From an uncultured Akkermansia sp. (GTDB taxonomy: Bacteria > Verrucomicrobiota > Verrucomicrobiia > Verrucomicrobiales > Akkermansiaceae), in contig CANPYO010000002.1 in the NCBI GenBank assembly GCA_947588645.1, positions 11,864-75,863 of the forward strand: a DNA stretch of 64,000 bases, written 5' to 3'. Both the position numbers and the translations under genes were made by a program. Shown in pieces: positions 30,478 through 48,264 of this stretch (positions are counted from its first letter, which is position 1; every line of letters begins with the position of its first letter). Below the pieces are notes generated by a model. It ran no database searches and was not told the DNA's origin. It saw only the letters and a program-made list of their open reading frames with translations.

Positions 30478-30922
30478 CAAGGCAAACGCATTAGAAAATG
30501 CGTTTGCCTATGTACGATGTACGATTTTCGATGTACGATTTGGAAATAGCGCGCGCCTGCGGCGCGGGGATGCTGAGCAGAAGCAAACGGAAATTTGAAA
30601 GCCGTGTGCGGATGTGGTTAGAAAGTGATGGGAATTGCAAAGCGGGAGCAGTCGCGGTGGAAGGTGGAGGTTTCACTTCCATCTCCCATGAAACGCATTA
30701 GAAAATGCGTTTGCCTATGTACGATGTACGATTTTCGATGTACGATTTGGAAATAGCGCGCGCCCGCGGCGCGGGGATGCTGAGCAGAAGCAAACGGAAA
30801 TTTGAAAGCCGTGTGCGGATGTGGTTAGAAAGTGATGGGAATTGCAAAGCGGGAGCAGTCGCGGTGGAAGGTGGAGATTTCACTTCCATCTCCCATGAAA
30901 CGCATTAGAAAATGCGTTTGCT
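30478..30922 (+). repeat. Tandem duplication of a 207-bp MITE-related unit (2 units plus a third hairpin)
   Basis: AAACGCATTAGAAAATGCGTTTG at 30484, 30691 and 30898 (period 207); the two units differ at two positions that I could see. Confidence 0.93.
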
Positions 30923-31028
30923 ATTTATGATTTTGAAATTTTTGCCGCGAAAAAATTGGGAGTTTTTATGCTCCTTTTTTCTGTTTCATATTTCATTTTA
31001 ATTGATTAAGAAGATCTCTGGAGTGCTC

Positions 31029-31214
31029 ATCTCTTTTTGAAAGAGATGTCAAGTGAAAAGAAAAATGTTTTTTCACGGTACGTGAGTTACGAAGATTAGA
31101 AACGACTAAAATGCCACGCGTCAGGTGTGTTTTGCGTAAGTGTGTTTTATTGTATAGAGCTTAATACAAATAGTGTATGATCGCTGAAGGTGTATATCTC
31201 TTTCAAAAAGAGAT
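31029..31214. promoter_or_regulatory. Pair of 19-bp palindromic sites in inverted orientation flanking 148 bp of AT-rich leader
   Basis: ATCTCTTTTTGAAAGAGAT (31029-31047) and ATCTCTTTCAAAAAGAGAT (31196-31214) are exact reverse complements; candidate -10 TATGAT at 31176. Confidence 0.7.
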
Positions 31215-31265
31215 ATGCTGGCGCCTGATCAGGGGATCCCTGCTTCATGATTTTCTCTGTACAAC

Positions 31266-31547
31266 ATGCCTTCTCTCAAAGAAAAGATTCATTTGGAAGT
31301 GGTTATAGACGTCGCCATGGCGGTCGTACTAATCGCGTCGCTATGGGTAGGAGCAGGCTACTATCAACGTGCGGGTCGGTTGGAGAGACGGACGGATCAA
31401 ATATGCGCCCGTATCAAGAGCGTGGAACGCGAATCTGTCAGACTCGATAACAGACGATCCGGTACCAACGCGCAGGAACTGTCGCGTGAAATCGACATGT
31501 TGGAAGACAAAGTAACCGAGCTGAATGCTCTGCTCAGGGAGGAATAA
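31266..31547 (+). CDS. Cassette ORF1-A: N-anchored coiled-coil protein (93 aa)
   Basis: TM VVIDVAMAVVLIASLWVGAGYY followed by a heptad-rich tail. Confidence 0.65.
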   Translation: MPSLKEKIHLEVVIDVAMAVVLIASLWVGAGYYQRAGRLERRTDQICARIKSVERESVRLDNRRSGTNAQELSREIDMLEDKVTELNALLREE

Positions 31548-31551
31548 GCGC

Positions 31552-32295
31552 ATGAAAGAGACAATTCGAGTGGCGTTGAAAATAGCAACCGGCCTGGCCG
31601 CCGCCTGGGTTCTCTGCATGTTCGTGTTCTGCCTGTTTTCAGAGAGAACTCTGCACAGGGCAGAACTACAGCTGCAGGACGCCGCCGCACAGTTGGCCGA
31701 GGAAAAAGACGCACATGAGGAGGATAAAGCTATGGTCAAAGAGCTGCGCAAGATGAGGCTCGATCTCAAAAACGAACTGCGTGTGCTCAAAAAACAGCTT
31801 GCTCTGAAAAAGGGACTCTCGGAGGGGACAGAAATCTCCGCGGAGGAGCTTTCGGATGCCCTCTCAGAACGCGAACGTTCCGAAGCCAAGCATGACCTTT
31901 TGCACGAGAATAGGACGCTGCTGCGCAGAATTGCCGAGTCGCGTTACGCTCTCCGCTCATACAGGACTCCGCCTTGTTTGGAAACTCTCGATGATGAATA
32001 TCAGGAGAGACTGCGGAGCATTCACGGGAAATGGAGAGCGGCCGTGCAATCTCTGCTTAACGTTGCTACCCGAGGAGAGGCGGATAAGGTACTCCGCCTG
32101 CAGGAACAAGTGCGAGAACTCGCCGACTCTGCGGACGTTCTCACAGGGAACACGCAGCTCTATTTTAACCAGGCGGGACGGATAGCCGAAGTCGCCGACG
32201 AGCTTTTGAATGCCGCCACCGCTCGCCAACTTCTGCTTCGTCGATCCGAAGAGTTGGACATCCCCGTCAATCCCGAAATTTCCCCTAACCCCTGA
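31552..32295 (+). CDS. Cassette ORF2-A: N-anchored coiled-coil protein (247 aa)
   Basis: TM IATGLAAAWVLCMFVFCLF followed by long amphipathic helices. Confidence 0.7.
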   Translation: MKETIRVALKIATGLAAAWVLCMFVFCLFSERTLHRAELQLQDAAAQLAEEKDAHEEDKAMVKELRKMRLDLKNELRVLKKQLALKKGLSEGTEISAEELSDALSERERSEAKHDLLHENRTLLRRIAESRYALRSYRTPPCLETLDDEYQERLRSIHGKWRAAVQSLLNVATRGEADKVLRLQEQVRELADSADVLTGNTQLYFNQAGRIAEVADELLNAATARQLLLRRSEELDIPVNPEISPNP

Positions 32296-32301
32296 CTCCA
32301 T

Positions 32302-32556
32302 ATGGATAAATACATTAACATAGGCCTCGTCGTCATTATCATTGCTGCAATTTTAGTCGGCAGGCATTTCTATTCCCAAAAGTCAAACACGGAAATCTCC
32401 ATTGAGAACACGCAAAAGAAGATTGAAGGTATTCGAAGGGAAATCTCCTCGATCAAATCCAAGGTGAACTCCCTTGGCACCCGTCAACTTAATGCCGAGA
32501 AATCCCGCTTGGAAAGGCAACAGGAACAGCTGAAAACGGAACTCGAAAGAATCTGA
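32302..32556 (+). CDS. Cassette ORF3-A: N-anchored coiled-coil protein (84 aa)
   Basis: TM INIGLVVIIIAAILVG followed by a coiled coil. Confidence 0.7.
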   Translation: MDKYINIGLVVIIIAAILVGRHFYSQKSNTEISIENTQKKIEGIRREISSIKSKVNSLGTRQLNAEKSRLERQQEQLKTELERI

Positions 32557-32571
32557 TAACTCATAAAACAC

Positions 32572-33408
32572 ATGGACATTCTACTTAAAATTCTGGCAGT
32601 GCTGACCCTGATCTGGGGAGGCTGGATGTATTTCATAAGTTCCGATGATGAGGCAAAGCTGAGGGGAATTCGTAACGAACTCAAAGTAGCCAAGCAAGAA
32701 TTGGGCGATGCACGAGTTGCTTACGAGGAAGAGAGCAAAAAATGCGAGACTCTCGCAGGGGAGATAGATACCCTAAAGGAGAATGCTCAGGAATTGAGAA
32801 AAGAGATCACCACGAAGAGGGAGGAAAAGAAGAAACTAGCCGCTCAGGAACGTCAAGAACGACTGGAAGCAGAGAGAAAGGCGCGAGAAGAAGCCGCAGA
32901 GGCACGGAGAGAAAAATTAAGGATTCAAAAAGAAAAGGAGCAGGAGAGCAGAATGGCCTTATTGGAACGCGAAAAACAATTTGAAAAAGAGGAAGAAGAA
33001 AAAGAAAAAGCTGAGCAAGCTAAACAGGATGCCGAGTATGAGAAGGAAGAAAGGAAGGAAAGAATTCAACAATTAAAAAGAAGGATAGAAAGTTCGACTC
33101 GTGGACTGGAGAGCTATAGTTCCTGCTCGGCTTACGCTCCTCCGGGCAAAAAAGATTTCGGACAAGTTGAAAAGATGCGGCAGAATTGGACCTCATTTGT
33201 TCGAAGTTGTATTGAAGCAGTCGATAAAGGTGATTCAAAGAGGTTTGAAAGTACCGGAAAGAAACTTCTCAATACGGCGAAAGCTCTGGATAGAATTTGT
33301 GATGGTCGCTACGTAAGTGATGCTACAAATTTCGTTGCTGAAGGCAGAAAAATACTAGGGGCAAAGAAAGAGCTGCAGGAGCTGGAAAAATTGAATAAAA
33401 GCGAGTAA
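32572..33408 (+). CDS. Cassette ORF4-A: N-anchored protein with a charged E/K/R stalk and Cys-containing C-terminal domain (278 aa)
   Basis: TM ILAVLTLIWGGWMYF, TolA-like charged helix, C-terminal domain with three Cys. Confidence 0.75.
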   Translation: MDILLKILAVLTLIWGGWMYFISSDDEAKLRGIRNELKVAKQELGDARVAYEEESKKCETLAGEIDTLKENAQELRKEITTKREEKKKLAAQERQERLEAERKAREEAAEARREKLRIQKEKEQESRMALLEREKQFEKEEEEKEKAEQAKQDAEYEKEERKERIQQLKRRIESSTRGLESYSSCSAYAPPGKKDFGQVEKMRQNWTSFVRSCIEAVDKGDSKRFESTGKKLLNTAKALDRICDGRYVSDATNFVAEGRKILGAKKELQELEKLNKSE

Positions 33409-33409
33409 A

Positions 33410-33474
33410 CGGTGATATCAGTCAATAAGAGCATTTTCTCTGCTGATTGACTTCTCTCAAACGCTTTTGCCCTG
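33410..33474 (+). repeat. Right-hand fragment of the X-type MITE
   Basis: GGTGATATCAGTCAATAAG...CTCTCAAACGCTTTTGCCCTG matches about 1388-1450. Confidence 0.75.
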
Positions 33475-33475
33475 C

Positions 33476-33838
33476 CTAGGGCGCAGGGGAAAAAAATTGC
33501 CAAGCTTGGTAGGCGAGGGTAAGCCGCAGGATGAGGGCGAAAAACATGCCCCATGTGATGGCAAAGGTGGCTTTGCCTCGTGCAGTGAGACGTCGCGAGC
33601 GCACCACGCAGTAAAAAACGATGGCCTGGAGCAGCGCGGAGCAGCAGAGCGCTGCAATGGGAGAAAAATCGAGATGGATGAGGGGCAACGCCAGGGGCCA
33701 GAGAAAGGCGATGGCGCAATCCAAAATGCCATGAATGCCGCCGAGCCACGCGACAACAGCCGATGGCGCCATGACACAAAGAAAGAGCGTAATTCGCGCT
33801 ATTTTGCTGTATCTTACTTCCTGGGTGGGGATGTACAT
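33476..33838 (-). CDS. Small multi-TM hypothetical protein (~120 aa)
   Basis: Three to four hydrophobic segments; start chosen at MYIPT to avoid overlap with uvrB. Confidence 0.5.
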   Translation of the reverse strand: MYIPTQEVRYSKIARITLFLCVMAPSAVVAWLGGIHGILDCAIAFLWPLALPLIHLDFSPIAALCCSALLQAIVFYCVVRSRRLTARGKATFAITWGMFFALILRLTLAYQAWQFFSPAP

Positions 33839-33894
33839 GGGCGTGTTCGTACTATGCCTCAAAATCCCCGTGCTGTCAATGAAGGAATGAGCAG

Positions 33895-36057
33895 ATGTCA
33901 ATCTTCCGACTAGTGACGGATTACACGCCGTCCGGTGATCAGGAGCAGGCCATCGGCAAGCTCTTGAAATCGCTGCGCGCCGGGAATCGTCACCAGTGTT
34001 TGCTGGGGGTGACGGGCAGTGGCAAAACGTTCACGATGGCTAACATCATTGCCCAACAAGACAGGCCGGTGCTGGTGCTCTCGCACAACAAGACGCTCGC
34101 TGCTCAGCTCTACTCTGAATTGAAGGCTTTTTTCCCCCAGAATGCGGTAGAGTACTTTGTATCCTACTTTGATTATTACCAGCCGGAGGCCTACATTGCC
34201 AGCACCGATACGTACATCGAAAAGGACAGCGCCATCAACGAGGAAATTGACCGACTTTGCTTGAATGCGATGCGTTCTCTGCTGCTGAGGAAAGACGTCA
34301 TTGTGGTGGCGAGTGTTTCGTGCATCTACGGACTTGGTTCGCCGGAGGATTATCGCAACCTCACGCTTTCCATCGCTACCGGGCAGGAGATGAACCGGGA
34401 TGCCTTGCTGGTGTGCCTCACGGAGCTTCTTTACGAGCGCAGCGATTATGATTTTCGGCGGGGGACGTTTCGTGTCCGCGGGGATGTGGTGGAGATTTAC
34501 CCCGGTCAGAGTGATGGGGAAGCCATACGGGTGGAGTTTTTCGGAGATGAAATTGATCGTGTTTCACTCATTGATGCCGGCACGGGTCGCGTGCGCGAGA
34601 GGTTGTCGAATTATCTCTTTTTCCCGGTGAAGCAATATGTTTCGGCCCCGGAAAAGCGGGCATCGGCGATGCAGAGCATTCGCGCAGAATTAGCGGAGCG
34701 CGTGGCCTGGCTGGAATCGCAGAACAAGCTCATCGAGGCGCAGCGGCTCAAAATGCGTACGGACTATGATCTGGAGCTTATCAACGAAATCGGCTATTGC
34801 AAGGGCATCGAGAATTACTCGCGCCACCTTGCCGGGCGCGCCCCCGGCAGCACGCCTTCGACACTTCAAGACTACTTCCCGGCAGATCACCTGACGATCA
34901 TTGATGAGTCGCACGCCACAGTGCCGCAGATCGGCGGCATGTACGAGGGAGATCGCTCTCGCAAGCAGGTGCTCATCGATTACGGCTTCCGACTGCCTTC
35001 TGCACTGGACAATCGTCCTCTGCGCTTTGATGAGTTTATGGCCCGCCAAGCGCAGATCGTTTACATGAGTGCGACCCCCGGTCCTTTTGAGTATGTGAAC
35101 TGCGTGCCGGGCAATAAGAGCTTTATCCCGATTTTGAAAGCGAAGCGAGGCAACACGCATGCGCGCAGTGAGAAAGCCAGCCGAGCCATTACGCGTGCGC
35201 CGGACGATTTCCGCGGAGTCTTCTTCCACAATCTGGCAGAACTGCGCGTGCTGCCTCATCCTTCCGGCGCTTCGGTGGAGAGTTTTGATCCCACTCGCCT
35301 GGGGCAAGCCCTCATCGTGGAACAGCTGATTCGCCCCACCGGCTTGCCGGAACCCAAAATTACCATCCTTCCGCTGGAGGGACAAATCGACAAGACGATC
35401 GAGCTGTGCCACGAGCGTGTTCAGGTGCACGAACGCGTGCTGATCACCACCCTTACCAAACGCACGGCGGAGGATCTTACCGATTATTTACGGAAAGTGG
35501 ATTTGCGTGTGGAGTATATTCATGCGGATGTGGATGCCATCGAGCGTGTGGAGATTTTGCGCAAGCTGCGCAGTGGCAAGGTTGACATCCTTGTGGGCAT
35601 CAACCTGCTGCGTGAGGGACTGGATTTGCCGGAGGTTTCGCTTGTCTGCATTTTGGATGCCGATAAAGAGGGATTTCTGCGCAACGAGACCAGCCTGGTT
35701 CAGACTGCCGGCCGCGCTGCCCGCCATGTGCACGGGGAGTGCGTGCTTTTCTGCGATGTGGTTACGGACTCGATACGGGCTCTCGTGGAGGAAAGTGACC
35801 GTCGCCGTAAAATTCAGCTTGCTTACAACAAAGAGCACGGCATTGTGCCACACAGCGTGGCCCGAGCTGACCAGAGTGCATTGCGTCTCTACACTCCGGA
35901 TGAGGAGGAGGAAGTATTGGCAGCGGCAGAGGAGGATGAGACCCCCGAGGTCACCATTGCGCGCTTGGAGAAAGAAATGCGAGAGGCCGCGGCACGTCTG
36001 GATTTCGAGGTGGCTGCTGTCTTGCGCGACCGCATCAAGTCACTTCGAGGTGAGTAA
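33895..36057 (+). CDS. uvrB: Excinuclease ABC subunit B
   Basis: GVTGSGKTFTMAN, YFDYYQPEAY, IDESHATVPQ, SATPG, LREGLDLPEV and C-terminal UVR domain. Confidence 0.97.
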   Translation: MSIFRLVTDYTPSGDQEQAIGKLLKSLRAGNRHQCLLGVTGSGKTFTMANIIAQQDRPVLVLSHNKTLAAQLYSELKAFFPQNAVEYFVSYFDYYQPEAYIASTDTYIEKDSAINEEIDRLCLNAMRSLLLRKDVIVVASVSCIYGLGSPEDYRNLTLSIATGQEMNRDALLVCLTELLYERSDYDFRRGTFRVRGDVVEIYPGQSDGEAIRVEFFGDEIDRVSLIDAGTGRVRERLSNYLFFPVKQYVSAPEKRASAMQSIRAELAERVAWLESQNKLIEAQRLKMRTDYDLELINEIGYCKGIENYSRHLAGRAPGSTPSTLQDYFPADHLTIIDESHATVPQIGGMYEGDRSRKQVLIDYGFRLPSALDNRPLRFDEFMARQAQIVYMSATPGPFEYVNCVPGNKSFIPILKAKRGNTHARSEKASRAITRAPDDFRGVFFHNLAELRVLPHPSGASVESFDPTRLGQALIVEQLIRPTGLPEPKITILPLEGQIDKTIELCHERVQVHERVLITTLTKRTAEDLTDYLRKVDLRVEYIHADVDAIERVEILRKLRSGKVDILVGINLLREGLDLPEVSLVCILDADKEGFLRNETSLVQTAGRAARHVHGECVLFCDVVTDSIRALVEESDRRRKIQLAYNKEHGIVPHSVARADQSALRLYTPDEEEEVLAAAEEDETPEVTIARLEKEMREAAARLDFEVAAVLRDRIKSLRGE

Positions 36058-36230
36058 TGCAGTTGCCATGAGTCAGCAAGACGGCAAACAATTGATGATT
36101 GAGCAAGGTAGTGGAGCCGGCATGGCGTCACTCCGGAGACTTCCCCGCGCAGCGCGCGCGAATTCCTCAAATCGTACATCGTACACCGTACATCGTACAT
36201 AGGCAGACTCCGTCTGCCCCGTGCGGGGAA

Positions 36231-37289
36231 TCAGATGATGCAACGGCTGTTCGTTCGGAAATGGCGCTGACGATCCAGGCTGTACTGCAGAATCGCTTTC
36301 ATCAGTTCACCATGCGACATCCCCCACTTTTCCGCTCCCATGACGAAAGGACCGGACTTGCCGATGTAACAGCAAATGTTCATTTCGATGAGTCGTCGTG
36401 TGCCTGTCGAGGGGGCGATGCGGTAGTCCAGACGGAAATAGTCGACGGGGCCCAGTCCCCGCCATACGGTCATCACGTCCCCGCGTATCTGCTGCTGCAC
36501 CTGCTCGGGTAAATTCGCCCACTCGTAGCCCAAGTGGTCGTGCAGCTTCAAGTCACCGGTGAGGATGCCTTCTTTTTTGTCCGATCCCGGCTTCACAAAT
36601 CCCAGAATTGTCGGTTCCTCCGGACCTCCGACCACGGGCACCGTGTAGTCCGTCCCGGGACAGAATTCTTCGATGAGAGCATCGTGCCCCTGTGCATTGA
36701 GACTGCTCGCGCAGTCAACCGCCGCTTGCCAGCTGTCGGCTATGTTGGCCTCTGTGATGCAGTCAGACGCGGCGCCGAATCGTTTTTTCACGAAGAAACG
36801 TTTGACGTGGGCGAGTTGTTGCGGCGGAGCGGAGGGCGGTTCCGAAAGCTTGCTGAGCGTCACTCCCGGAGCCACGGGGAGATTCAGTCCTGTGAACGCC
36901 AGTTTCATGAGCCACTTATCCTCCGCCACGGCGCGAATATTCGGGGAAGCTCCCAAGTAGGGAATGCGCGCAAACTCACAATATGACGAGATAAAAATTT
37001 CCGGATTTTCAATGGGGATGCGATTGAGCAGTGAGAAGACGTAATCCACGTTGCCCTTTGCTTGCAGGATGGCGTATGGTTTCGAGCTGGAGTAAACTTC
37101 GCACCCGATGTCCTGAAGGAGTCGGAAAATGCTGTGGTGGTATTGCGGGTAGCCGCCATTGCCTTTGTAAGGCTTCACGCTGAAGTCAGGACCATCCGGC
37201 GCGTATGGCGCCATATACAGCACACGCAACGGCTCTCCGTGATCATTCACCAATTTCTCCGGAATTCGTGGAAATGTTTTCGGTATCAT
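36231..37289 (-). CDS. ATP-grasp ligase, D-Ala-D-Ala ligase-like but atypical
   Basis: IPYLGAS...AEDKWLMK, ALIEEFCPGTDYTV, RLDYRI and IEMN ATP-grasp elements; Ddl signature motifs are missing. Confidence 0.7.
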   Translation of the reverse strand: MIPKTFPRIPEKLVNDHGEPLRVLYMAPYAPDGPDFSVKPYKGNGGYPQYHHSIFRLLQDIGCEVYSSSKPYAILQAKGNVDYVFSLLNRIPIENPEIFISSYCEFARIPYLGASPNIRAVAEDKWLMKLAFTGLNLPVAPGVTLSKLSEPPSAPPQQLAHVKRFFVKKRFGAASDCITEANIADSWQAAVDCASSLNAQGHDALIEEFCPGTDYTVPVVGGPEEPTILGFVKPGSDKKEGILTGDLKLHDHLGYEWANLPEQVQQQIRGDVMTVWRGLGPVDYFRLDYRIAPSTGTRRLIEMNICCYIGKSGPFVMGAEKWGMSHGELMKAILQYSLDRQRHFRTNSRCII

Positions 37290-37415
37290 GGCACCTATTC
37301 TACCGACACGTCCTCCTTGGGGCAAGCCGTTAGATTTCCTTTTTGTGTCCGCAGCACACGCGCTGATTTATCCAAGGAATCGACTCGAAGTCGTTTTCCT
37401 TGCCAGCACGCTCGC

Positions 37416-38690
37416 TCAGTGAGGCACGGCGAGAGTCTGGGTGCGGTCGGGGCCAACGCCAACAGAGCCGACAGGGCAGCCGACGATTTCTCCGAACCGT
37501 TTGACATAGGATTGGCAGCTAGCCGGGAGCTGATCCCAAGATGTGCACTTCGTTGTATCTTGCATCCAGCCGGGCAGGGTTTCGTAGATGGGCACGCACT
37601 GCTCCCAATCATCGATAAGGGCAGGGGGGTATTCCAGCGTACGTTCACCCAATTTGTAGCCGGTGCAGATTTTGATTTCCCTGCAGGCATCCAGACCATC
37701 GAGGTTGGTCATGGCCATCTCATTAAAGCCGTTGAACATGGCGGAAAAGCGTAGCACCACACCATCTGCCCAACCGCAGCGACGCGGTCGGCCGGTGGTG
37801 GCGCCGAATTCGCGACCCAGCCCATGCAAGTAATCGGCAAGCTGCGCATCTTCGGAGACGAAGGGACCGGCGCCTACACGAGTGGTGTAGGCTTTGCACA
37901 CACCGATAATTTTGTGGATGCCCGTGGGCGGTACACCGGAGCCGGTACAGCAACCGCCGGCGCTGGTGTTGGAAGAGGTGACATAGGGGTAGGTGCCGAA
38001 ATCCACATCCAGCATGGCTCCTTGCGCTCCCTCAAAAAGGATGCTCTTACCGGCTCCTGCCGCGCGATTCAGGACGGGAATCGTGTCTGTGACATGCGCG
38101 CGCAGCTCGTCCGCAGCTTGCATGACGGCACGCAGGTTTTCTTGCGGATCAGAGGCGGGGTAGCCGAGACGCACCAGCTCCTCGTTGGCGGTCGCAATTC
38201 GGTCGGTGAGAACAGATTTCAAATGATCCGGGTTGACGAGATCAGCCATGCGGATACCGACGCGGCGCACCTTGTCTGCGTAAGTGGGGCCGATGCCCTG
38301 TTTTGTGGTGCCAATTTTGTGCTCGCCAAGAGCTTCCTCCTGCGCGGCATCAATTTCTTTGTGGATGGGCAGAACGACGTGGGCGCGGTCGGAGAGCATC
38401 AGATTCTGAGGAGTGATTTCCACGCCGAGACCGCGCAAATAGACCATTTCCTCTACGAGGGAAGTCGGGTTGATGACGACGCCGTTACCGATGATATTTA
38501 ACTTGCCGGGCCAGAGGATGCCGGAAGGCACGAGATGCAGCACGTATTTCTTACCGTGGGCGATGACGGTGTGACCGGCGTTGCTGCCTCCTTGGCTGCG
38601 CACCACAATATCTGCATCTTCGGTGAGAAAATCAATCACCTTGCCTTTGCCTTCATCTCCCCACTGGGAGCCAATCACGAGTGTGTTCAT
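37416..38690 (-). CDS. purA: Adenylosuccinate synthetase
   Basis: QWGDEGKGKVID, GGSNAGHT, GIGPTYADK, FEGAQG and GATTGRPRRCGW motifs. Confidence 0.98.
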   Translation of the reverse strand: MNTLVIGSQWGDEGKGKVIDFLTEDADIVVRSQGGSNAGHTVIAHGKKYVLHLVPSGILWPGKLNIIGNGVVINPTSLVEEMVYLRGLGVEITPQNLMLSDRAHVVLPIHKEIDAAQEEALGEHKIGTTKQGIGPTYADKVRRVGIRMADLVNPDHLKSVLTDRIATANEELVRLGYPASDPQENLRAVMQAADELRAHVTDTIPVLNRAAGAGKSILFEGAQGAMLDVDFGTYPYVTSSNTSAGGCCTGSGVPPTGIHKIIGVCKAYTTRVGAGPFVSEDAQLADYLHGLGREFGATTGRPRRCGWADGVVLRFSAMFNGFNEMAMTNLDGLDACREIKICTGYKLGERTLEYPPALIDDWEQCVPIYETLPGWMQDTTKCTSWDQLPASCQSYVKRFGEIVGCPVGSVGVGPDRTQTLAVPH

Positions 38691-39984: not shown

Positions 39985-40200
39985 CACTCATGTCCCCATA
40001 AAATCATAACTGGGCTCATTCAACCCATTCCTCTTGCGTTTCCAACAGACAAAGGAAGTAAGCCCGGCAAGAATCATGATGCCCGCTTGTTGCCGTGATT
40101 TTTGATACGTACAAGCGGTGATATCAATCAATGAGAGTCTTTTCTCTGCTGATGGACTTCCCTCAAATGCGTCTGTCCCGGAGGTCTGCCTGTTGGGAAA
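39985..40200 (+). repeat. Composite P-family/X-module repeat
   Basis: First ~90 bp match 12493-12580, then module X (as in 1344-1450) with a degenerate right TIR ending at 40180, then CTGCCTGTTGGGA as in the other P elements. Confidence 0.7.
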
Positions 40201-40323
40201 ATATTCGTCATCTTTCGGAGTTAGCTTGCAAATGGGAGCGGATCGTGTATATAATGGTCGGGAGAACGTAGGGGAAGCGCTCACTTGGAATGCGACCCCG
40301 CATGGCGTCAACCCAATATCACC

Positions 40324-40662
40324 ATGAGTAACGAAGAAAAAGATCCGAATGTTGTGCCGGCTCCCGCGCCGGAGCCTGCTCCGTCCAGTGACACTCAAAA
40401 GCGTTTGAGCACGGCTCGCGAGTTTGCAAGCGAGCAGTACGAAAAGCTTCGCCGTGCAACGGCTGACCAAATGGAAAATGTGCGCCGTTACACACGAGAT
40501 GCGCGGCGTCAACTTCACGAAGGTTGGGATGCCACGCGCAATAAGGCGAAGGACCTGCACCACGCGGGAGAGGAGTACGTGAAGGCAAACCCGACCACGA
40601 GCGTGCTCGGTGCGCTGGGGGTTGGAATTGTGCTGGGGTTGCTTTTGGGCAGCCGCCGTTGA
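40324..40662 (+). CDS. DUF883/ElaB/YqjD family tail-anchored protein
   Basis: YVKANPTTSVLGALGVGIVLGLLLGSRR C-terminal anchor; promoter TTGCAA...TATAAT near 40226-40255. Confidence 0.85.
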   Translation: MSNEEKDPNVVPAPAPEPAPSSDTQKRLSTAREFASEQYEKLRRATADQMENVRRYTRDARRQLHEGWDATRNKAKDLHHAGEEYVKANPTTSVLGALGVGIVLGLLLGSRR

Positions 40663-40681
40663 TTTTTACACCGCGCATCCC

Positions 40682-41116
40682 ATGGTTGAGAGCCAACACG
40701 CTGAGAAGACGGTCACCCTGCGCGAGCAGGGGGGCGCCGTGCTGGGCGGTGTGCGCGAGAGTGTCCTGCACGCCACCCGGCATGTGGAAGCTTTGGCTGA
40801 GTTGCTGCAGGTTGAGCTCAACGAGTATGGAAGAAGACAAGCCAGGCGGCTTACTGCGGCCTTGGTGGGGGTAGCGTTACTGTTATGTGCCTACCTCATG
40901 CTATGCGTATTTGCCGTGCTGGTGCTTATGCCCGTTCTGAAGCCGATATGGGCGCCCGTACTGGCTGTGGTGATTTTTAATGCCCTGGTCGGTATGGTAG
41001 CGCTGCTGGTGAGCAAATGTGGAAAGCCCGGCGGTGTTGCTCCGGAGACTGTCAAAGAACTTAAAAACGACCTCGAATGCGTCAAACTCTACCTGAAAGG
41101 AAAAGAGAACTCCTGA
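40682..41116 (+). CDS. YqjE-like (holin superfamily III) membrane protein
   Basis: ELLQVELNE motif, two TMs, PETVKELKND; typical position after a DUF883 gene. Confidence 0.75.
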   Translation: MVESQHAEKTVTLREQGGAVLGGVRESVLHATRHVEALAELLQVELNEYGRRQARRLTAALVGVALLLCAYLMLCVFAVLVLMPVLKPIWAPVLAVVIFNALVGMVALLVSKCGKPGGVAPETVKELKNDLECVKLYLKGKENS

Positions 41117-41487
41117 TGCGCGCAGCCGAATCGCGCGTGGCGGTGGTGGAGAGCATAGAATCCACTGCCGGCACGGTTCGCAGTGTGTACGGGCGGTTCA
41201 GTGTGCCGAGCTCTTATGTGAAAATGGGGCTTGGCGTAGGTGCAGGTTTGGTGGGAGCGTGGCTGATGAGACGCGTGTTTTCCGCAGGGTCGCGTCGTGT
41301 GTCAGCTGCGTTGAATACCCCGACGCATAGCACGAGCGGGGCGCTTGTGTTGTTGCTCGTGCAGGTGGCATCGGCTCTGCTGCTTCCGTGGGTGCGCGAG
41401 CGGGTACACGGTTCAGATTGGGGAAATGTGGTCAAGCGCATGCACCCTTCTCACATATTCTTCCGTTGGTTAGGGTTGGAGAAATAG
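41116..41487 (+). CDS. YqjK-like hypothetical membrane protein
   Basis: TGATG coupling; completes a yqjD-E-K-like trio. Confidence 0.5.
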   Translation: MRAAESRVAVVESIESTAGTVRSVYGRFSVPSSYVKMGLGVGAGLVGAWLMRRVFSAGSRRVSAALNTPTHSTSGALVLLLVQVASALLLPWVRERVHGSDWGNVVKRMHPSHIFFRWLGLEK

Positions 41488-41490
41488 ACC

Positions 41491-41859
41491 ATGACTCCCA
41501 AAACGTACAAAATCGGCGATGCTGACATACGCCCGTGGGGGCGTTGGGTTGTGCTGGATTTGACTCCTCAGCTCGTCGTAAAAAAACTTTTTATCGCGCC
41601 GGGAAAACGCATTTCTTTGCAACTTCACAGATTTCGCTCGGAGCGTTGGATTATGATGCAGGGCGAGGCTGTGGTTCAGAAAAATGACGAGAAAATCGTT
41701 CTTAAACCAGGCGATGGCGTGCTCATCCCTCAAAATACCTTGCATCGCCTCTCCAACGAGAGCGAACAGGAAGTCCTTCTACTCGAGGTTCAGTTTGGCG
41801 ACTTGCTCAGCGAGGATGATATAGAACGCCTTGAGGACGATTACGGAAGAAACGACTAG
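41491..41859 (+). CDS. Cupin, mannose-6-phosphate isomerase type II C-terminal-like
   Basis: RPWG, ISLQLHRFRSERW, HRLSN and EVQFGDLLSEDDIERLEDDYGR. Confidence 0.9.
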   Translation: MTPKTYKIGDADIRPWGRWVVLDLTPQLVVKKLFIAPGKRISLQLHRFRSERWIMMQGEAVVQKNDEKIVLKPGDGVLIPQNTLHRLSNESEQEVLLLEVQFGDLLSEDDIERLEDDYGRND

Positions 41860-41891
41860 AGTTGAAAACTCCGCAGGAATTTAAAGAAATT

Positions 41892-42817
41892 ATGTTATTT
41901 ACCCCCCCCTAGTATCTGTTATTCAAGTTTGTCAAGATCTGATTGACGGCGTCGTTTGCGTTAATCGGGATTCAGATACCCAGCGGTGGGAAAAATACTG
42001 TTTGCGGGCGAAGGGAATCATCGAACCGGAGAAGTTATACCGGCTGAGCGCCGTAGAGGGAGTGCAGTTGCCGGGTTATGGGGAAAGGCCGTGGTTTACA
42101 GAACGCACCGGCGCGCGAAGAGAACATTGGGCTCATGGGGGCGGGTGTTTGCTGTCGCACCGCAATGCGATACGTCTTGCGCAGGAGAAGGAATGGCGCA
42201 ACGTACTCATCATGGAAGATGATGCTGTGCCGGAGGTAGAAGAAGGAGCTATGCGAGCGTTGGCGCGAGCCTTGAGAGAATTGCGGGGCAAATGGGTGCT
42301 CTATCTCGGGTATTCTGAGCGCCCCCGTCCTTGTGGGCGCGCACTGTGGCAGCAAGGAGGGTATTCTCTATGGCAGATCAGCGGGGCTATTGCTCTGCAC
42401 GCTTACATCGTGCCCCGGAGCATGTATGCGGCAATTCTGGCGCATCTTCCTCAGGAGGATTCTCAGGTGTGGTCTTGGATGGCTCGGCACAGAGCCATTG
42501 ACAACTGGTACAGGAATGAGGTTTCCGAGTGGCCGGGGGTGCGTGTACATACAATACTGCCGCATCTGTATTACCAGGAGGCTTTTTATGATGCGAGTGG
42601 AGTGGCAGGATCTGCCAATGAGCTGGGAAAGAGTGTCAAACTCAGTTCGCGTACGGTATATCCACGGGCGTGCTGGGGGCTATTTACGCTTGGACACTTT
42701 CTCTTTGCGCCGTTCAGAAGATTTGCCGTACGCATGAATACTCTGCGCACATATTACCTCTGCCGTTGCTTTGGCTTTCGAGGGCAGAAAAAAAGGAAAC
42801 GTGCGAAATTGCAATAA
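41892..42817 (+). CDS. Glycosyltransferase family 25, currently frameshifted at a C8 tract (phase-variable candidate)
   Basis: GCLLSHRNAI...VLIMEDDA GT25 motifs; the N-terminal motif VVCVNRDSDTQRW lies upstream of the first in-frame TTG; ATG 41892 joins the frame only with C9. Confidence 0.75.
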
Positions 42818-42880
42818 AGGACACTAATTAGACTTGAAATCCGTTCACTTTCATGTCATATTAGCGCGACCGCACAGAGC

Positions 42881-44803
42881 ATGTCAGATCATAAAGAACG
42901 CAAAACACTTGAAGAACGCAACCAGGCAAGTGAGCTGGAGAGGCTTCGTCACTCCTGCGCGCACGTCTGCGCCACGGCGATTTGTCGCATATGGCCTCAG
43001 GCGCAACTGGCGGCTGGCCCGGCTGTTGAGAACGGCTTTTATTACGATATTGAACTCGACCACAACATCTCATCGGATGAGTTTGCCCTCATCGAGGAAG
43101 AAATGAAAAAAGTGGTAAAGGAGAATGCGCCGTTTGAGAAGACCGTAGTGAGTCGCTCTGAGGCTCTGCACATGGCAGAGACCGGCGAATTAGGCAGCAT
43201 TGGGCCGCGCGGCGTGCCTTCTAAGTTCAAATTGGATCTGCTTTCCCGCATCCCGGAAGATGAGCCCATTTCCATCTATCGCAATGGTGACTTTACCGAC
43301 TTGTGCGCCGGTCCGCACGTGGCTCGTACAGGAAATTGCAAGGCTTTTAAGATTATGAGCGTGGCCTCTTCCTATTACCAAGGGGATGCCAACGGACCAC
43401 GGCTGCAGCGCGTGTACGGCACGTGCTTTCCGAACCGCACTCAGCTGGATGAGCACCTGGCTCGACTGGAGGAGGCAAAAAGGCGTGACCACCGCAAGCT
43501 CGGTCGAGAACTCGGACTCTTTGCTATTGATGAGATGGTGGGGCAGGGCTTGGTTCTCTGGAAACCAAAGGGCGCCATTATCCGCCGGGAGCTGCAGAAA
43601 TTCATCACCGAGGAGTTGGATCGCATCGGCTATTCACAGGTGTTTACCCCCCACCTTGGGAAGCTGGATTTGTACATGACCAGCGGTCACTGGGAACATT
43701 ACAAAGAAAGCCAATTCCCTCCCATTCCGGATCCGGATGACTTCAAGAAACTGCGTGACGAGCACGCCACTTGTGCCGATCTTTTCAACGCGCTTGATAC
43801 CCGCACGATCACGGGTTTCATGCTCAAACCCATGAATTGCCCGCACCACATCCGTATCTACGCAAACGAGCCGCACTCTTATCGCGACTTGCCCGTGCGT
43901 CTCGCTGAGTTCGGCACGGTGTACCGTTGGGAACAGAGCGGTGAGCTGGGTGGCATGACTCGCGTGCGCGGCTTCACCCAAGATGATGCCCATATCTTCT
44001 GCCGTCCGGATCAGATTAAGCAGGAGGTTCAGCAGTGCATCGGCATCGTCAAGCTTATTCTTGGAACCTTGCAAATGACCGATTTTCGCGTGCGTCTCTC
44101 TCTGCGCGACAGAGATTACTCCGATCCCAAGTACGTCGGGAGTCACGAAAATTGGGAGCTTGCGGAGAATGCCCTGCGCGGGGTCCTGCAGGAGGAAGGT
44201 TTTGACTTTGTGGAGGCTGAAAATGAAGCCGCTTTCTACGGACCGAAAATCGATTTCATTGTGCGCGATGTCATTGGTCGCGATTGGCAGCTTGGCACCG
44301 TCCAAGTGGATTACAACCTGCCGGAACGCTTCGAGCTCACATACACCGGTGCGGACAATAAACCTCACCGTCCCGTTATGATACATCGCGCTCCGTTTGG
44401 CTCCATGGAGCGGTTCACGGGTTTGCTCATCGAGCATTTTGCCGGCAAATTCCCCACGTGGCTTGCACCGGAGCAGGTGCGTGTGCTCCCCATTTCTGAG
44501 AAGGTACTCGACTTTGCGCACGAGGTGCGCGCTCAACTGGCCGATGCCGGCGTGCGCGTACGCATGGACGATGCTCCGGACAAGATTGGCGCTAAAATTT
44601 GCAATGCGCGCATGGATCGCGTGCCTTACATGCTCGTTGTCGGGCAGCGCGAGGCGGAACAGGGACTCGTCTCTGTGCGCCACAGGGATTTGGATGTCAT
44701 CGGAACTATGAAACTGGCTGACTTCTGCAGCGCTCTGCAGCGCGAGACAGAGCAGCGCCTTATTGCTCCCGAGCTTCAACCTTCCGCGCCACATGCGGAG
44801 TAA
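42881..44803 (+). CDS. thrS: Threonine--tRNA ligase
   Basis: LRHSCAH, DLCAGPHV, RDHRKLG, KPMNCPHH, RVRGFTQDDAH and MIHRAPFGSMERF motifs. Confidence 0.98.
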   Translation: MSDHKERKTLEERNQASELERLRHSCAHVCATAICRIWPQAQLAAGPAVENGFYYDIELDHNISSDEFALIEEEMKKVVKENAPFEKTVVSRSEALHMAETGELGSIGPRGVPSKFKLDLLSRIPEDEPISIYRNGDFTDLCAGPHVARTGNCKAFKIMSVASSYYQGDANGPRLQRVYGTCFPNRTQLDEHLARLEEAKRRDHRKLGRELGLFAIDEMVGQGLVLWKPKGAIIRRELQKFITEELDRIGYSQVFTPHLGKLDLYMTSGHWEHYKESQFPPIPDPDDFKKLRDEHATCADLFNALDTRTITGFMLKPMNCPHHIRIYANEPHSYRDLPVRLAEFGTVYRWEQSGELGGMTRVRGFTQDDAHIFCRPDQIKQEVQQCIGIVKLILGTLQMTDFRVRLSLRDRDYSDPKYVGSHENWELAENALRGVLQEEGFDFVEAENEAAFYGPKIDFIVRDVIGRDWQLGTVQVDYNLPERFELTYTGADNKPHRPVMIHRAPFGSMERFTGLLIEHFAGKFPTWLAPEQVRVLPISEKVLDFAHEVRAQLADAGVRVRMDDAPDKIGAKICNARMDRVPYMLVVGQREAEQGLVSVRHRDLDVIGTMKLADFCSALQRETEQRLIAPELQPSAPHAE

Positions 44804-44844
44804 GATCTCCTTCTATCTGTCAAAACCAACACACCACACTACAC

Positions 44845-45498
44845 GTGCCACTCCCACCAAAGAAAGCGAACAGTCCCGCGCGTAACAACCGTCGCGATCA
44901 ATCCAACAAAGTCTCCCAGACCCGAGTCAACGAACGCATCCGCGCTCCACGTGTCCGAGTTGTTACGGCAGAGGGCGTCCAGCTGGGCATAGTAGCCACG
45001 CGAGATGCCTTGGTCAAAGCGAAGGAATTGGGGCTGGATCTTGTGGAAGTGGCGCCGAACGCCGATCCTCCTGTCTGCCGCATTATCGATTATGGCAAGT
45101 ACAAATACATGCAGGCCAAGCAGCAGAAAAACAGCAAGTCGAAGGTCGTTCGCATGAAGGAGGTGAAACTCCGCATTGGTACGGATGTCAATGATTACAA
45201 CGTGAAAATGGGGCGTACCGAGCAGTTTCTTGATCATGGGCACAAAGTGCGGTTCCAACTGCGCTTCAAAGGCCGCGAAAATGCTCACCAGCAAATGGGG
45301 CTTGATGTGATGGCCAAAGTTGCGGAGGATATGAAGACTATGGCGCGTGTGGATCAACCGGCCAAGCTTGTTGGCAACACGGTGAGCATGGTTCTCTCTC
45401 CTCTCCCCAATGGACAGCGCGTCAAGAAATTCAAAAAGTACGAGGAAGACGATTTCGATACAGAATCTGCCGAGTTTGACGCCAAAGAAGAAGGCTGA
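44845..45498 (+). CDS. infC: Translation initiation factor IF-3
   Basis: VNERIRAPRVRVV, LDLVEVAP...PPVCRIIDYGKYKY and FKGRE; follows thrS. Confidence 0.95.
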   Translation: MPLPPKKANSPARNNRRDQSNKVSQTRVNERIRAPRVRVVTAEGVQLGIVATRDALVKAKELGLDLVEVAPNADPPVCRIIDYGKYKYMQAKQQKNSKSKVVRMKEVKLRIGTDVNDYNVKMGRTEQFLDHGHKVRFQLRFKGRENAHQQMGLDVMAKVAEDMKTMARVDQPAKLVGNTVSMVLSPLPNGQRVKKFKKYEEDDFDTESAEFDAKEEG

Positions 45499-45534
45499 GA
45501 GGCCAAAATCGACAACGTTTTCTCATTGTAATTC

Positions 45535-45600
45535 GTGGCGCCGTCAGGCGCCACCCTCGTACATTGTAAATGGCAAACGCATTTCCTAATGCGGCCTTTG
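45535..45600 (-). repeat. Degenerate MITE left-end fragment
   Basis: GGCAAACGCATTTCCTAATGCG hairpin plus heptamer remnants and the GCGCCGTCAGGCGCCA module also seen near 16444. Confidence 0.55.
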
Positions 45601-45694
45601 TCCGCAGAATCTGAAGAAGCACGCACGCAGCGGCGCATCAAACTCGTCTGATTCGTGCCCTCCACATCGCCACAGATTGGCAGGGTCGCTTTGT

Positions 45695-46534
45695 CTAAGA
45701 CTCGCTTTTATTCAATTTCTCCAGCTCCTGCAGCTCTTTCCATACCCCTAGTATTTTTCTGCCATCAGCAACGAAATTTGTAGCATCACTTACGTGGTGA
45801 CCATCACATATTCTATCCAGTGCTCTCGCTGTATTGAGAAGTTTCTTCCCGGTCTTTTCAAACGTATTTGAATCACCTTTATCGACTGCTTCAATACAAC
45901 TTCGAACAAATGAGGTCCAATTTTGCCGCATCTTTTCAACTTGTCCGAAATCTTTTTTGCCCGGAGGAGCGGAGGCCGAGCAGAAACTATAGTCCTCCAG
46001 TCTACGAGTCCAACTTTCTATCCTTCTTTTTAATTGTTGAATTCTTTCCTTCCTTTCTTCCTTCTCATACTCAGCAGCCTGTTCTTTTTCTTTTTGTTCT
46101 TCCTCTTTTTCAAATTGTTTTTCGCGTTCCAATAAGGCCATTCTGTTCTCCTGCTCCTGCTCCTGCTCCTTTTCTTTTTGAATCCTTAATTTTTCCCTCC
46201 GTGCCTCTGCGGCTTCTTCTCGCGCCTTTCTCTCTGCTTCTAATTGTTCTTGACGTTCCTGAGCGGCTAGTTTCTTCTTTTCCTCTCTCTTCGCGGTGAT
46301 CCCTTTTCTCAATTCCTGAGCATTCTCCTTTAGGGTATCTATCTCCCCTGCGAGAGTCTCGCATTTTTTGCTCTCTTCCTCGTAAGCAGCTCGAGCATCG
46401 CCCAATTCTTGCTTGGCTACCTTGAGCTCGTTACGAATTCCCCTCAGCTTTGCCTCATCATCGGAGCTTTTGAAGTACATCCAGCCCCCCCAGATCAGGG
46501 TCAGCATCGCCAGCATTTTAAGTAGAATGTCCAT
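45695..46534 (-). CDS. Cassette ORF4-B (279 aa), diverged paralogue of ORF4-A
   Basis: Same architecture; many substitutions and indels relative to 32572-33408. Confidence 0.75.
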   Translation of the reverse strand: MDILLKMLAMLTLIWGGWMYFKSSDDEAKLRGIRNELKVAKQELGDARAAYEEESKKCETLAGEIDTLKENAQELRKGITAKREEKKKLAAQERQEQLEAERKAREEAAEARREKLRIQKEKEQEQEQENRMALLEREKQFEKEEEQKEKEQAAEYEKEERKERIQQLKRRIESWTRRLEDYSFCSASAPPGKKDFGQVEKMRQNWTSFVRSCIEAVDKGDSNTFEKTGKKLLNTARALDRICDGHHVSDATNFVADGRKILGVWKELQELEKLNKSES

Positions 46535-46549
46535 GGCTTTTATGAGTTA

Positions 46550-46804
46550 TCAGATTCTTTCGAGTTCCGTTTTCAGTTGTTCCTGCTGCTTTTCCAAGCG
46601 GGTTTTTTCGGCATTAAGTTGACGGATGCCAAGGGAGTTCACTTTGGATTTGATCGAGGAGATTTCCCTTCGAATTCCTTCAATCTTCTTTTGCGTATTT
46701 TCAATGGAGATTTCCGTGTTTGACTTTTGGGAATAGAAATGTCTGCCGACTAAAATTGCGGCAATGATAATGACGACGAGACCGATGTTAATGTATTTAT
46801 CCAT
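46550..46804 (-). CDS. Cassette ORF3-B (84 aa)
   Basis: Three amino-acid differences from ORF3-A. Confidence 0.7.
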   Translation of the reverse strand: MDKYINIGLVVIIIAAILVGRHFYSQKSNTEISIENTQKKIEGIRREISSIKSKVNSLGIRQLNAEKTRLEKQQEQLKTELERI

Positions 46805-46817
46805 ATGGGGTCAGGGG

Positions 46818-47561
46818 TTAGGGGGTAGGTGAAGTTTCGGGATTGACGGGGATGTCCAACTCTTCGGATCGACGAAGCAGAAGTTGGCGAGCGGTAGCGG
46901 CATTCAAAAGCTCGTCGGCGACTTCGGCTATCCGCCCCGCCTGGTTAAAATAGAGCTGCGTGTTCCCTGTGAGAACGTCCGCCGAGTCGGCGAGTTCTCG
47001 CACTTGTTCCTGCAGGCGAAGTACCTTATCCGCTTCTCCTCGGGTAGCAACGTTAAGCAGAGATTGCACGGCCGCTCTCCATTTCCCGTGAATGCTCCGC
47101 AGTCTCTCCTGATATTCATCATCGAGAGTTTCCAAACAAGGCGGAGTCCTGTATGAGCGGAGAGCGTAACGCGACTCGGCAATTCTGCGCAGCAGCGTCC
47201 TATTCTCGTGCAAAAGGTCATGCTTGGCTTCGGAACGTTCGCGTTCTGAGAGGGCATCCGAAAGCTCCTCCGCGGAGATTTCTGTCCCCTCCGAGAGTCC
47301 CTTTTTCAGAGCAAGCTGTTTTTTGAGCACACGCAGTTCGTTTTTGAGATCGAGCCTCATCTTGCGCAGCTCTTTGACCATAGCTTTATCCTCCTCATGT
47401 GCGTCTTTTTCCTCGGCCAACTGTGCGGCGGCGTCCTGCAGCTGTAGTTCTGCCCTGTGCAGAGTTCTCTCTGAAAACAGGCAGAACACGAACATGCAGA
47501 GAACCCAGGCGGCGGCCAGGCCGGTTGCTATTTTCAACGCCACTCGAATTGTCTCTTTCAT
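46818..47561 (-). CDS. Cassette ORF2-B (247 aa)
   Basis: Identical to ORF2-A except two residues at the C-terminus. Confidence 0.7.
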   Translation of the reverse strand: MKETIRVALKIATGLAAAWVLCMFVFCLFSERTLHRAELQLQDAAAQLAEEKDAHEEDKAMVKELRKMRLDLKNELRVLKKQLALKKGLSEGTEISAEELSDALSERERSEAKHDLLHENRTLLRRIAESRYALRSYRTPPCLETLDDEYQERLRSIHGKWRAAVQSLLNVATRGEADKVLRLQEQVRELADSADVLTGNTQLYFNQAGRIAEVADELLNAATARQLLLRRSEELDIPVNPETSPTP

Positions 47562-47565
47562 GCGC

Positions 47566-47847
47566 TTATTCCTCCCTGAGCAGAGCATTCAGCTCGGTTA
47601 CTTTGTCTTCCAACATGTCGATTTCACGCGACAGTTCCTGCGCGTTGGTACCGGATCGTCTGTTATCGAGTCTGACAGATTCGCGTTCCACGCTCTTGAT
47701 ACGGGCGCATATTTGATCCGTCCGTCTCTCCAACCGACCCGCACGTTGATAGTAGCCTGCTCCTACCCATAGCGACGCGATTAGTACGACCGCCATGGCG
47801 ACGTCTATAACCACTTCCAAATGAATCTTTTCTTTGAGAGAAGGCAT
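47566..47847 (-). CDS. Cassette ORF1-B (93 aa)
   Basis: Protein identical to ORF1-A. Confidence 0.65.
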   Translation of the reverse strand: MPSLKEKIHLEVVIDVAMAVVLIASLWVGAGYYQRAGRLERRTDQICARIKSVERESVRLDNRRSGTNAQELSREIDMLEDKVTELNALLREE

Positions 47848-48264
47848 GTTGTACAGAGAAAATCATGAAGCAGGGATCCCCTGATCAGGCGCCAGCATAT
47901 CTCTTTTTGAAAGAGATATACACCTTCAGCGATCATACACTATTTGTATTAAGCTCTATACAATAAAACACACTTACGCAAAACACACCTGACGCGTGGC
48001 ATTTTAGTCGTTTCTAATCTTCGTAACTCACGTACCGTGAAAAAACATTTTTCTTTTCACTTGACATCTCTTTCAAAAAGAGATGAGCACTCCAGAGATC
48101 TTCTTAATCAATTAAAATGAAATATGAAACAGAAAAAAGGAGCATAAAAACTCCCAATTTTTTCGCGGCAAAAATTTCAAAATCATAAATAGCAAACGCA
48201 TTTTCTGATGCGTTTCATGGGAGATGGAAGTGAAACCTCCATCTTCCACCGCAGGCGAGCATAC

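Follow-up and report, generated by a model that had tools for sequence, protein, structure and literature searches.

An inverted duplication of an uncharacterised operon, probably under partial concerted evolution, borders the uvrB-infC block in a rabbit-gut Akkermansia

Two inverted copies of a four-gene operon enclose a block of core genes

The 64,000-nt stretch analysed here (the window) covers positions 11864-75863 of contig C2 in G000, a short-read metagenome-assembled genome (MAG) of a rabbit-gut Akkermansia that comprises 2.49 Mb in 158 contigs. Two long inverted repeats in this window, which we call arms A and B, enclose a block of genes that runs from uvrB to infC. Arm A (30861-33406, forward strand, 2546 nt) lies between pdxA and uvrB and carries a full cassette, with an end derived from a miniature inverted-repeat transposable element (MITE), a leader and four open reading frames (ORF1 to ORF4). 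Arm B (45700-48252, reverse strand, 2553 nt) is its reverse-complement copy and lies between infC and the terminator of pgk, leaving an interval of 12,293 nt between the two. Throughout, G numbers denote Akkermansia species genomes (G000 being that of the window), C numbers contigs of G000 and L numbers metagenome contigs; the records of the relatives are SPAdes-style NODE contigs.

The arm coordinates and the reverse-complement arrangement given in the first-pass annotation of this DNA proved correct by repeat finder, BLAST and base-by-base comparison. The repeat finder resolved the arms into four contiguous inverted pairs (I1 to I4) with indels of 7, 12 and 12 nt as the only gaps, and BLAST aligned them at 95.98% identity over 2565 columns. 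A BLAST search with arm A found exactly two copies in the whole assembly.

Base by base, the arms show no difference over the 1172 nt of 30907-32078 (forward strand), which correspond to 47035-48206 (reverse strand) in arm B. This core, the homogenised (gene-conversion) tract, spans the leader, ORF1 and most of ORF2. The same annotation had noted a near-identical 5' part of about 1.4 kb; the identical stretch as measured is the 1172 nt of the core. An assembler that traverses a repeat edge twice writes identical text in both places, so the figure of 100% for the core should be read as a maximum. Outside the core, the arms differ at three positions at the outer end (30871, 30877 and 30906) and in about 100 columns, including the 7-, 12- and 12-nt indels, from 32079 inward, up to the ORF4 stop codons that form the inner ends of both arms.

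Both arms are real copies: many independently assembled metagenome samples contain each of them next to its specific inner flank and with its specific allele. The repeats are also non-identical, as had been noted.

The cassette encodes paralogous N-anchored coiled-coil proteins

Each arm is a complete operon in which a leader of about 400 nt is followed by four tightly spaced ORFs of 93, 247 (or 256), 84 and 278/279 aa, every one of which has a single N-terminal hydrophobic helix and then a coiled coil. ORF1-A (31266-31547, forward strand; 93 aa, N-terminal transmembrane (TM) helix and coiled coil) is identical to its copy in arm B (47566-47847, reverse strand). ORF2-A (31552-32295, forward strand; 247 aa, or 256 aa from an upstream ATG at 31525) combines a TM helix and coiled coil with a conserved C-terminal helical domain, and ORF2-B (46818-47561, reverse strand) differs from it by 2 aa. 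ORF3-A (32302-32556, forward strand; 84 aa) is a paralogue of ORF1 and is separated by 3 aa differences from ORF3-B (46550-46804, reverse strand). ORF4-A (32572-33408, forward strand; 278 aa), a paralogue of ORF2, is the variable gene of the set: ORF4-B (45695-46534, reverse strand; 279 aa) is 85-88% identical to it, and other strains carry alleles of 281 and 287 aa at the ORF4-B site, the 281-aa allele being 56% identical to ORF4-A.

ORF2 and ORF4 match over their full length in hhalign (probability 95.7%, E 9e-9), and ORF1 and ORF3 align end to end. Judged by these similarities, the operon is therefore a tandem duplicate of a two-gene module consisting of one small and one large N-anchored coiled-coil protein. 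The ratios of nonsynonymous to synonymous change (dN/dS) between arms A and B are 0.10 for ORF2, 0.07 for ORF3 (dS 0.23) and 0.35 for ORF4, and the cassette ORFs are therefore genes under selection. A distant two-gene paralogue of the cassette, which represents a single module (141 aa and 245 aa; 31% identity to ORF4), is encoded at C82:5725-6911.

An AlphaFold2 model of ORF4 (pLDDT 87.5) has a TM helix (residues 2-17), one helix of 157 residues (26-182) and a C-terminal three-helix bundle (196-277); Foldseek against PDB returned nothing below an E-value of 0.4 for this model. Searches of the cassette proteins against Pfam, NCBIfam, PHROGs and PADLOC gave no significant family, only weak matches of coiled-coil and Rz-like or spanin type (E >= 1e-5 to 1e-2) that we treated as compositional. 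The family is very narrow, with 19 clusters among 5.8 billion proteins for ORF4. Of the five matches to an ORF2 profile among 1.84 billion representative proteins, P0020 is a full-length family member, three are short fragments and the fifth is a distant relative of 260 aa; JGI metagenomes yielded no match. The operon is uncharacterised and fast-evolving and appears to be of envelope type.

The two arms exchange sequence

Contigs of the same species from other metagenomes were retrieved by exact-protein look-ups. They include a second strain type, present in both ERZ27249368 and ERZ27249370; the two samples agree at 100% identity throughout 7,939 nt of block flank and 4,650 nt of pgk flank and so carry the same strain. 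Its pdxA-side copy is found on L079 and its pgk-side copy on L021. The two cores of this strain differ from each other at 4 of 1147 sites, compared with 0 of 1172 in the window, whereas each differs from the window core at 23-30 sites (about 2-2.5% between strains). Cores that are alike within a strain and different between strains are the mark of concerted evolution, and this result is independent of any repeat edge written twice, because L079 and L021 come from different assemblies. The homogenised tract ends at the same place in both strain types (31963-32094), near the 3' end of ORF2, and the arms differ beyond it. In the second strain type the two copies differ at 273 aligned sites in all, and the pgk-side ORF4 is 56% identical to ORF4-A of the window.

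Scoring of 103 columns diagnostic for A or B revealed mosaics at both loci. The sites 32079-32217 are swapped relative to the window in L010 and L012, while L079, L080, L081 and L084 alternate between A-like and B-like tracts through ORF3 and ORF4. In a comparison of eight full-length cassettes, the four-gamete condition is violated by 1522 of the 7260 informative site pairs, and at least 18 recombination events (Rm) are required. Two ORF4 proteins (P0002 and P0005) are visible A/B recombinants. Recombination of the arms with each other is, on this pattern, strongly supported; the proposal that they can recombine is borne out by the concerted 5' part of about 1.1-1.2 kb and the mosaic ORF3/ORF4 alleles across strains, with RecA encoded in the genome (C54:4885-5673, 432 bits).

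Assemblies often break exactly at the core (L007, L008, L009, L011 and L076). Two of these contigs from two samples, L007 and L076, are exactly 14,666 nt long and correspond to 32224-46889 of the window, that is, tail A, the block and tail B. Such contigs are what a real two-copy repeat produces.

Each leader contains a candidate invertible promoter

About 50 nt upstream of ORF1, the leader of each arm carries an element in which two 19-bp repeats surround 148 bp. The repeats have the form ATCTCTTT(TTG/CAA)AAAGAGAT, the full repeat being ATCTCTTTTTGAAAGAGAT and its reverse complement. In arm A the element spans 31029-31214 (forward strand; repeats 31029-31047 and 31196-31214) and in arm B 47899-48084 (reverse strand; repeats 47899-47917 and 48066-48084). 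The repeat pair and its spacing are kept in seven of eight loci of relatives, even where the rest of the leader cannot be aligned; the short leader of L013 retains the ORF1-proximal repeat only.

Two contigs of one relative, Lapin-032__bin68, each with a copy of the cassette, differ in this element: the 148-bp middle is reverse-complemented between L014:1360-1545 and L020:7925-8110, and the sequences outside the repeats are unchanged. This difference is direct evidence, at the level of assembled sequence, that the 148-bp segment inverts in the relative. In the species of the window, all 12 contigs hold it in one (forward) state. We therefore regard the 148-bp leader segment only as a candidate invertible promoter, and it is likelier to be a programmed switch than the 12.3-kb block, if there is any switch here.

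The same motif (TCTCTTT-N3/4-AAAGAGA), with a start-to-start spacing of 157-169 nt, was observed at no fewer than 20 loci in G000, with loci on C3, C8, C9, C11 (three), C12, C19, C20, C42, C49, C52, C55, C71, C97 (two) and C130. Several of them precede genes for giant proteins (1074 to more than 6600 aa), which start with 'MKLHLP...' and, from these N-termini, are putatively exported. One adjoins an ORF that we take to be a family-2 glycosyltransferase. Together, the motif loci (at least 20) constitute a genome-wide candidate family of invertons. Human Akkermansia have invertons, including the cps1 inverton, with the motif CGGATT..AATCCG (PMC13343947).

The enclosed block is found in a single orientation

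Homologous recombination can flip any long inverted repeat, and the first-pass annotation had proposed this for the 12.3-kb segment. A crossover in the core keeps each tail on its end of the block, and the informative contigs are those that join an outer flank across a whole arm to the inner flank. Seven such contigs were available, from seven samples that include two strain types, and all seven have the orientation of the window. Six cross arm A to the uvrB side, coming from pdxA in four cases (L006, L079, L080 and the contig of the window itself) and from the left 207-nt repeat in two (L010 and L084). The seventh, L021, starts at pgk, crosses arm B and covers infC and purA. By our calculation, six additional contigs would agree through assembler guesswork with a probability of 1/64. 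Inversion of the block is unsupported at the consensus level, where a single orientation is the very outcome that the annotation had set against its own proposal, and another species genome, G151, has the same orientation.

No serine recombinase (PF00239) was matched anywhere in the genome, and no recombinase was found within 17 kb of the arms; the nearest tyrosine recombinase (PF00589; C2:76853-77299) lies about 17 kb beyond arm B. The GC skew of the block has the same sign as that of the left flank, which is weak evidence given the noise of this signal, and we rejected skew as an orientation clock for that reason.

Several observations weigh against a fixed orientation or limit what the contigs can tell. 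In L082 (3.5x coverage) and L083, A-like sites follow the pgk flank, at 36 of 36 sites over 32279-32717 in L082. Neither contig reaches an inner flank, as both break off within ORF4 or ORF3, where the sequence is common to both arms, so that conversion or an arbitrary join would explain them as well as an inverted molecule. Assembly breaks at the core are expected under a fixed and a mixed orientation alike. The 1172-nt core is probably longer than a typical short-read insert (an assumption of ours), and some joins made by assemblers could accordingly be guesses.

Among Salmonella recombinants between inverted cassettes, 8% carry an inversion, and for tuf events the share is up to a quarter (PMC8262849). 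By analogy, some flips must occur at a low rate at this locus as well; no strain seen has one fixed. Within its outer 400 nt or so, each arm contains the entire leader and two terminator-like hairpins, and arm B is additionally preceded by the strong pgk terminator. With leader, hairpins and ORF1-ORF2 identical in both arms, a crossover in the core recreates the same junctions, and a flip would probably not change cassette expression. The further proposal, that flipping swaps the alleles between two upstream contexts, therefore has little content, as the promoter region, the leader and the two hairpins lie inside the identical part of both arms. If the block were flipped, the sole effect would be a reversed direction of the core genes.

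A recombining repeat pair is the probable explanation of the locus

The explanation that we consider probable is a recombinationally active inverted duplication of the operon that borders the uvrB-infC block and undergoes partial concerted evolution, that is, an ordinary repeat pair and not a demonstrated switch. Homogenisation would be the work of RecA-dependent gene conversion, with tracts that begin in the identical core and do not extend past the onset of divergence near the 3' end of ORF2. Reciprocal crossovers that flip the 12.3 kb would be possible but rare by-products and not a regulatory switch, because hairpins and a leader are present in each arm. If the copies are under on/off control at all, it would most likely come from the 148-bp element in the leader of each.

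It is also conceivable, if unlikely, that the 12.3-kb block is truly invertible and polymorphic, with both orientations coexisting through RecA acting in the core or through a recombinase of the leader element acting on 19-bp sites of opposite arms. About 1.1-1.2 kb of identical inverted homology and RecA are present, recombination between the arms is frequent, and the inversion fractions reported for Salmonella (8% and up to a quarter; PMC8262849) lend this some weight. Four recombination-type sites exist, and those of opposite arms are inverted with respect to each other (31029 with 48066, and 31196 with 47899). Most assemblies break at the core, and A-like ORF3/ORF4 sequence is attached to the pgk flank in L082 and L083. 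These two contigs stop before the inner flank, however, and mosaic tails are common, so that conversion explains them. The single orientation of all seven informative contigs, from seven samples and two strain types, the same orientation in G151 and the lack of a recombinase gene nearby argue against a polymorphic block, as does, weakly, the GC skew shared with the left flank.

A combined two-allele system is a still more doubtful, speculative reading. Each arm would be switched independently by its own 148-bp inverton, and the leader with ORF1 and ORF2 would serve as a recombination handle that shuffles ORF3 and ORF4 between loci and strains, while RecA or the inverton recombinase acting on the four 19-bp sites would also flip the 12.3-kb block in a minority of cells.

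It is very improbable that one arm, the orientation or the identity of the core was made by a short-read assembler through collapse, strain mixture or a chimeric join. The genome is a MAG of 158 contigs and the relatives are represented by SPAdes-style NODE contigs; a repeat edge used twice reads identically, and the core probably exceeds the usual insert size, as assumed above. Yet each arm recurs with its own inner flank and allele in many independent samples, the 14,666-nt contigs with tail A, block and tail B were assembled from two samples, and the A and B copies of the second strain share their core although they come from different samples.

Least credible of all is a composite-transposon-like mobile unit of arms and block with core genes as cargo. 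In its favour, the neighbours of the block differ among G000, G058 and G047, and both arms have their outer ends in MITE-derived sequence. Against it, none of the four arm ORFs has a transposase or recombinase domain, the flanks seen here are stable, the pdxA-uvrB adjacency is older than the cassette, and synteny of the block without arms is seen in G058 and partly in G151 and G047. We rejected a composite transposon or mobile island on the grounds of the missing transposase and the arm-free synteny in G058.

The block, its flanks and their counterparts in related species

The enclosed block (33407-45699) contains uvrB, an ATP-grasp gene, purA, carA, DUF883, a holin_3_6-like gene, a 136-aa ORF, a cupin, a variable 271-aa ORF, thrS and infC; the DUF883, holin_3_6-like and 136-aa ORFs encode small membrane proteins. 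Pfam matches identified uvrB (33895-36057), the Ddl-like ATP-grasp gene (36231-37325), purA (37416-38690) and carA (38696-39853), as well as the DUF883, holin_3_6-like and cupin genes. For thrS (42881-44803) and infC (44845-45498), we relied on precomputed Pfam matches on the corresponding 640-aa and 217-aa genes of related contigs, where the infC product is the exact protein of the window. The earlier gene names thus stand for uvrB, purA, carA, thrS and infC. The exception is the 'GT25' label of the 271-aa ORF (42002-42817), for which the match to PF01755 is below threshold (E=0.055; 13.8 bits, cut-off 24). Strains differ strongly in this ORF, with 271, 249 or 308 aa, or only 49 aa called, in other samples. 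A hairpin-forming direct repeat of 66 nt (83% identical) is located directly after arm A (33407-33472) and again in the gap between carA and DUF883 (40113-40178), and it also occurs in the loci of relatives.

The outer flank of arm A is pdxA (29310-30197, reverse strand) and that of arm B is pgk (48316-49515, reverse strand), whose strong terminator hairpin (48272-48293) ends 20 nt from the outer end of the arm. Adjoining pgk, just outside arm B, is a gene for a 1000-aa PD-(D/E)XK (AddB-like) protein (49899-52901); in related contigs such a gene is followed by one for a UvrD-type helicase of about 1089 aa, together an AddB/AddA-like pair.

In G058, the closest species by uvrB (94%), the block corresponding to 33486-45498 of the window is syntenic but has other neighbours on both sides and lacks the arms. 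G151 encodes pdxA, a glycosyltransferase (glycan) island of 7.4 kb and then uvrB-ddl-purA-carA, collinear with the window. The orientation from pdxA to uvrB is therefore ancestral here, and the gap between the two genes is a site of variation. On the 3' side of pgk, five relatives have a neighbour that is orthologous to G000 C97:2134 onward, and homology with the window ends at 48264-48266, twelve bases from the arm end. The junction of infC, arm B and pgk is therefore derived. Of the two gene orders that the annotation had suggested comparing, pdxA-uvrB thus has the same orientation in G151, and infC-pgk is a derived junction. The neighbours of the block differ among G000, G058 and G047.

Two further scenarios for the junctions were considered and rejected. 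One, with pdxA and pgk as ancestral neighbours and the unit inserted between them, conflicts with their distance of 71-85 kb in complete relatives and their location on separate contigs elsewhere; no relative has them side by side. The other, in which the junction formed at an inverton repeat near pgk (C97 carries candidate invertons), fails because the homology of arm B reaches 168 nt past the outer 19-bp repeat, up to the pgk terminator.

Distribution and origin of the operon

The operon is present in 9 of 154 Akkermansia species representatives, with two copies in this genome only and one in each of the other eight. The named relatives that carry it are all 'uncultured Akkermansia sp. Lapin-...' MAGs. 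At six of the relatives' loci, the operon is located between murA and hppA (H+-pyrophosphatase), at a site orthologous to G000 C10:29302-29685; we take these two genes to be murA and the H+-pyrophosphatase gene from recognition of their N-terminal sequences. The site in G000 is empty of the cassette and holds only a fragment of a MITE-like dispersed repeat. Comparison of these loci suggests murA-hppA as the ancestral cassette site.

A tyrosine recombinase of a multi-copy family (about 340 aa) is encoded at C10:32195-33202, 2.5 kb from the empty site, and the same family is found at the matching position in L018 and L020. The multi-copy recombinase on C10 is a candidate for the inverton recombinase. 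Variants of the cassette were also observed in relatives: Lapin-032__bin68 (L014, L020) has an additional copy at the ancestral site, directly oriented and in part deleted, and Lapin-004__bin12 (L019) has a six-gene cassette with an added ORF3-ORF4 module.

The outer ends of both arms lie within MITE-derived sequence. Two tandem units of 207 nt form the outer edge of arm A (30484-30897, forward strand); at arm B only the last 37 nt or so of a unit and the hairpin remain, followed by the pgk terminator. Two full units at arm A and a remnant at arm B suggest that B was copied from an A-like locus, which may have happened during the rearrangement that joined infC to pgk.

The MITE-like element consists of a hairpin (AAACGCATTAGAAAATGCGTTTGCC) followed by GTACGAT heptamers and is widespread in the genome, with up to about 380 BLAST matches over a given position of the 207-nt unit and 416 occurrences of the end motif. 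Besides the two exact tandem units of 207 nt next to arm A, it occurs at rearrangement breakpoints on C97, C13 and C10.

Comparison with known systems and significance

The locus adds a new case to a known class of structure, and its closest counterpart is the tufA/tufB pair of Salmonella and E. coli, in which the gene conversion is RecA-dependent. Repeats of the tuf type co-evolve by gene conversion, and a fraction of the events give inversions (PMC8262849). Like tufA and tufB, the arms are two long inverted copies on one replicon that are kept near-identical by intrachromosomal recombination, with inversion as a possible by-product. Unlike tufA and tufB, they are 12.3 kb and not hundreds of kb apart, homogenisation is confined to the 5' half, with the 3' genes remaining distinct and mosaic, and the genes are lineage-specific without a known family; inversion was not observed among the contigs. 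Inversions mediated by rrn operons or insertion sequences (IS) likewise use long inverted homology around core genes as a substrate for homologous recombination, but the arms are not rRNA operons or IS elements, and the contigs reveal no strain in which the block is reversed.

The resemblance to invertons of gut bacteria, such as cps1 of human Akkermansia (PMC13343947), is limited to the 148-bp leader segment and does not extend to the 12.3-kb block: short inverted repeats surround about 150 bp in each leader, and both orientations occur in the MAG of a relative. In contrast to the human Akkermansia invertons, the motif is ATCTCTTT..AAAGAGAT instead of CGGATT..AATCCG, and all 12 contigs of this species show one state. 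Shufflons, the Hin/Gin/Cin systems and the large inversions of Bacteroides fragilis share with the locus a segment bounded by inverted repeats. Unlike in these systems, there is no adjacent invertase here, the arms are gene copies of 2.5 kb and not short crossover sites, and a flip would alter no coding or promoter fusion.

As originally posed, the inverted repeat is thus ordinary, and no flip was seen here. The locus also marks a rearrangement breakpoint that is useful in assembly and comparative work, with MITE-like sequence at the borders of the uvrB-infC block and neighbours that differ between close species. It provides a clean natural example of partial concerted evolution in an uncultured gut lineage of Akkermansia, in which the 5' module is homogenised and the 3' module remains diverse. 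More promising leads than a flip of the block are the uncharacterised operon itself and the candidate inverton family, whose motif differs from that of human Akkermansia.

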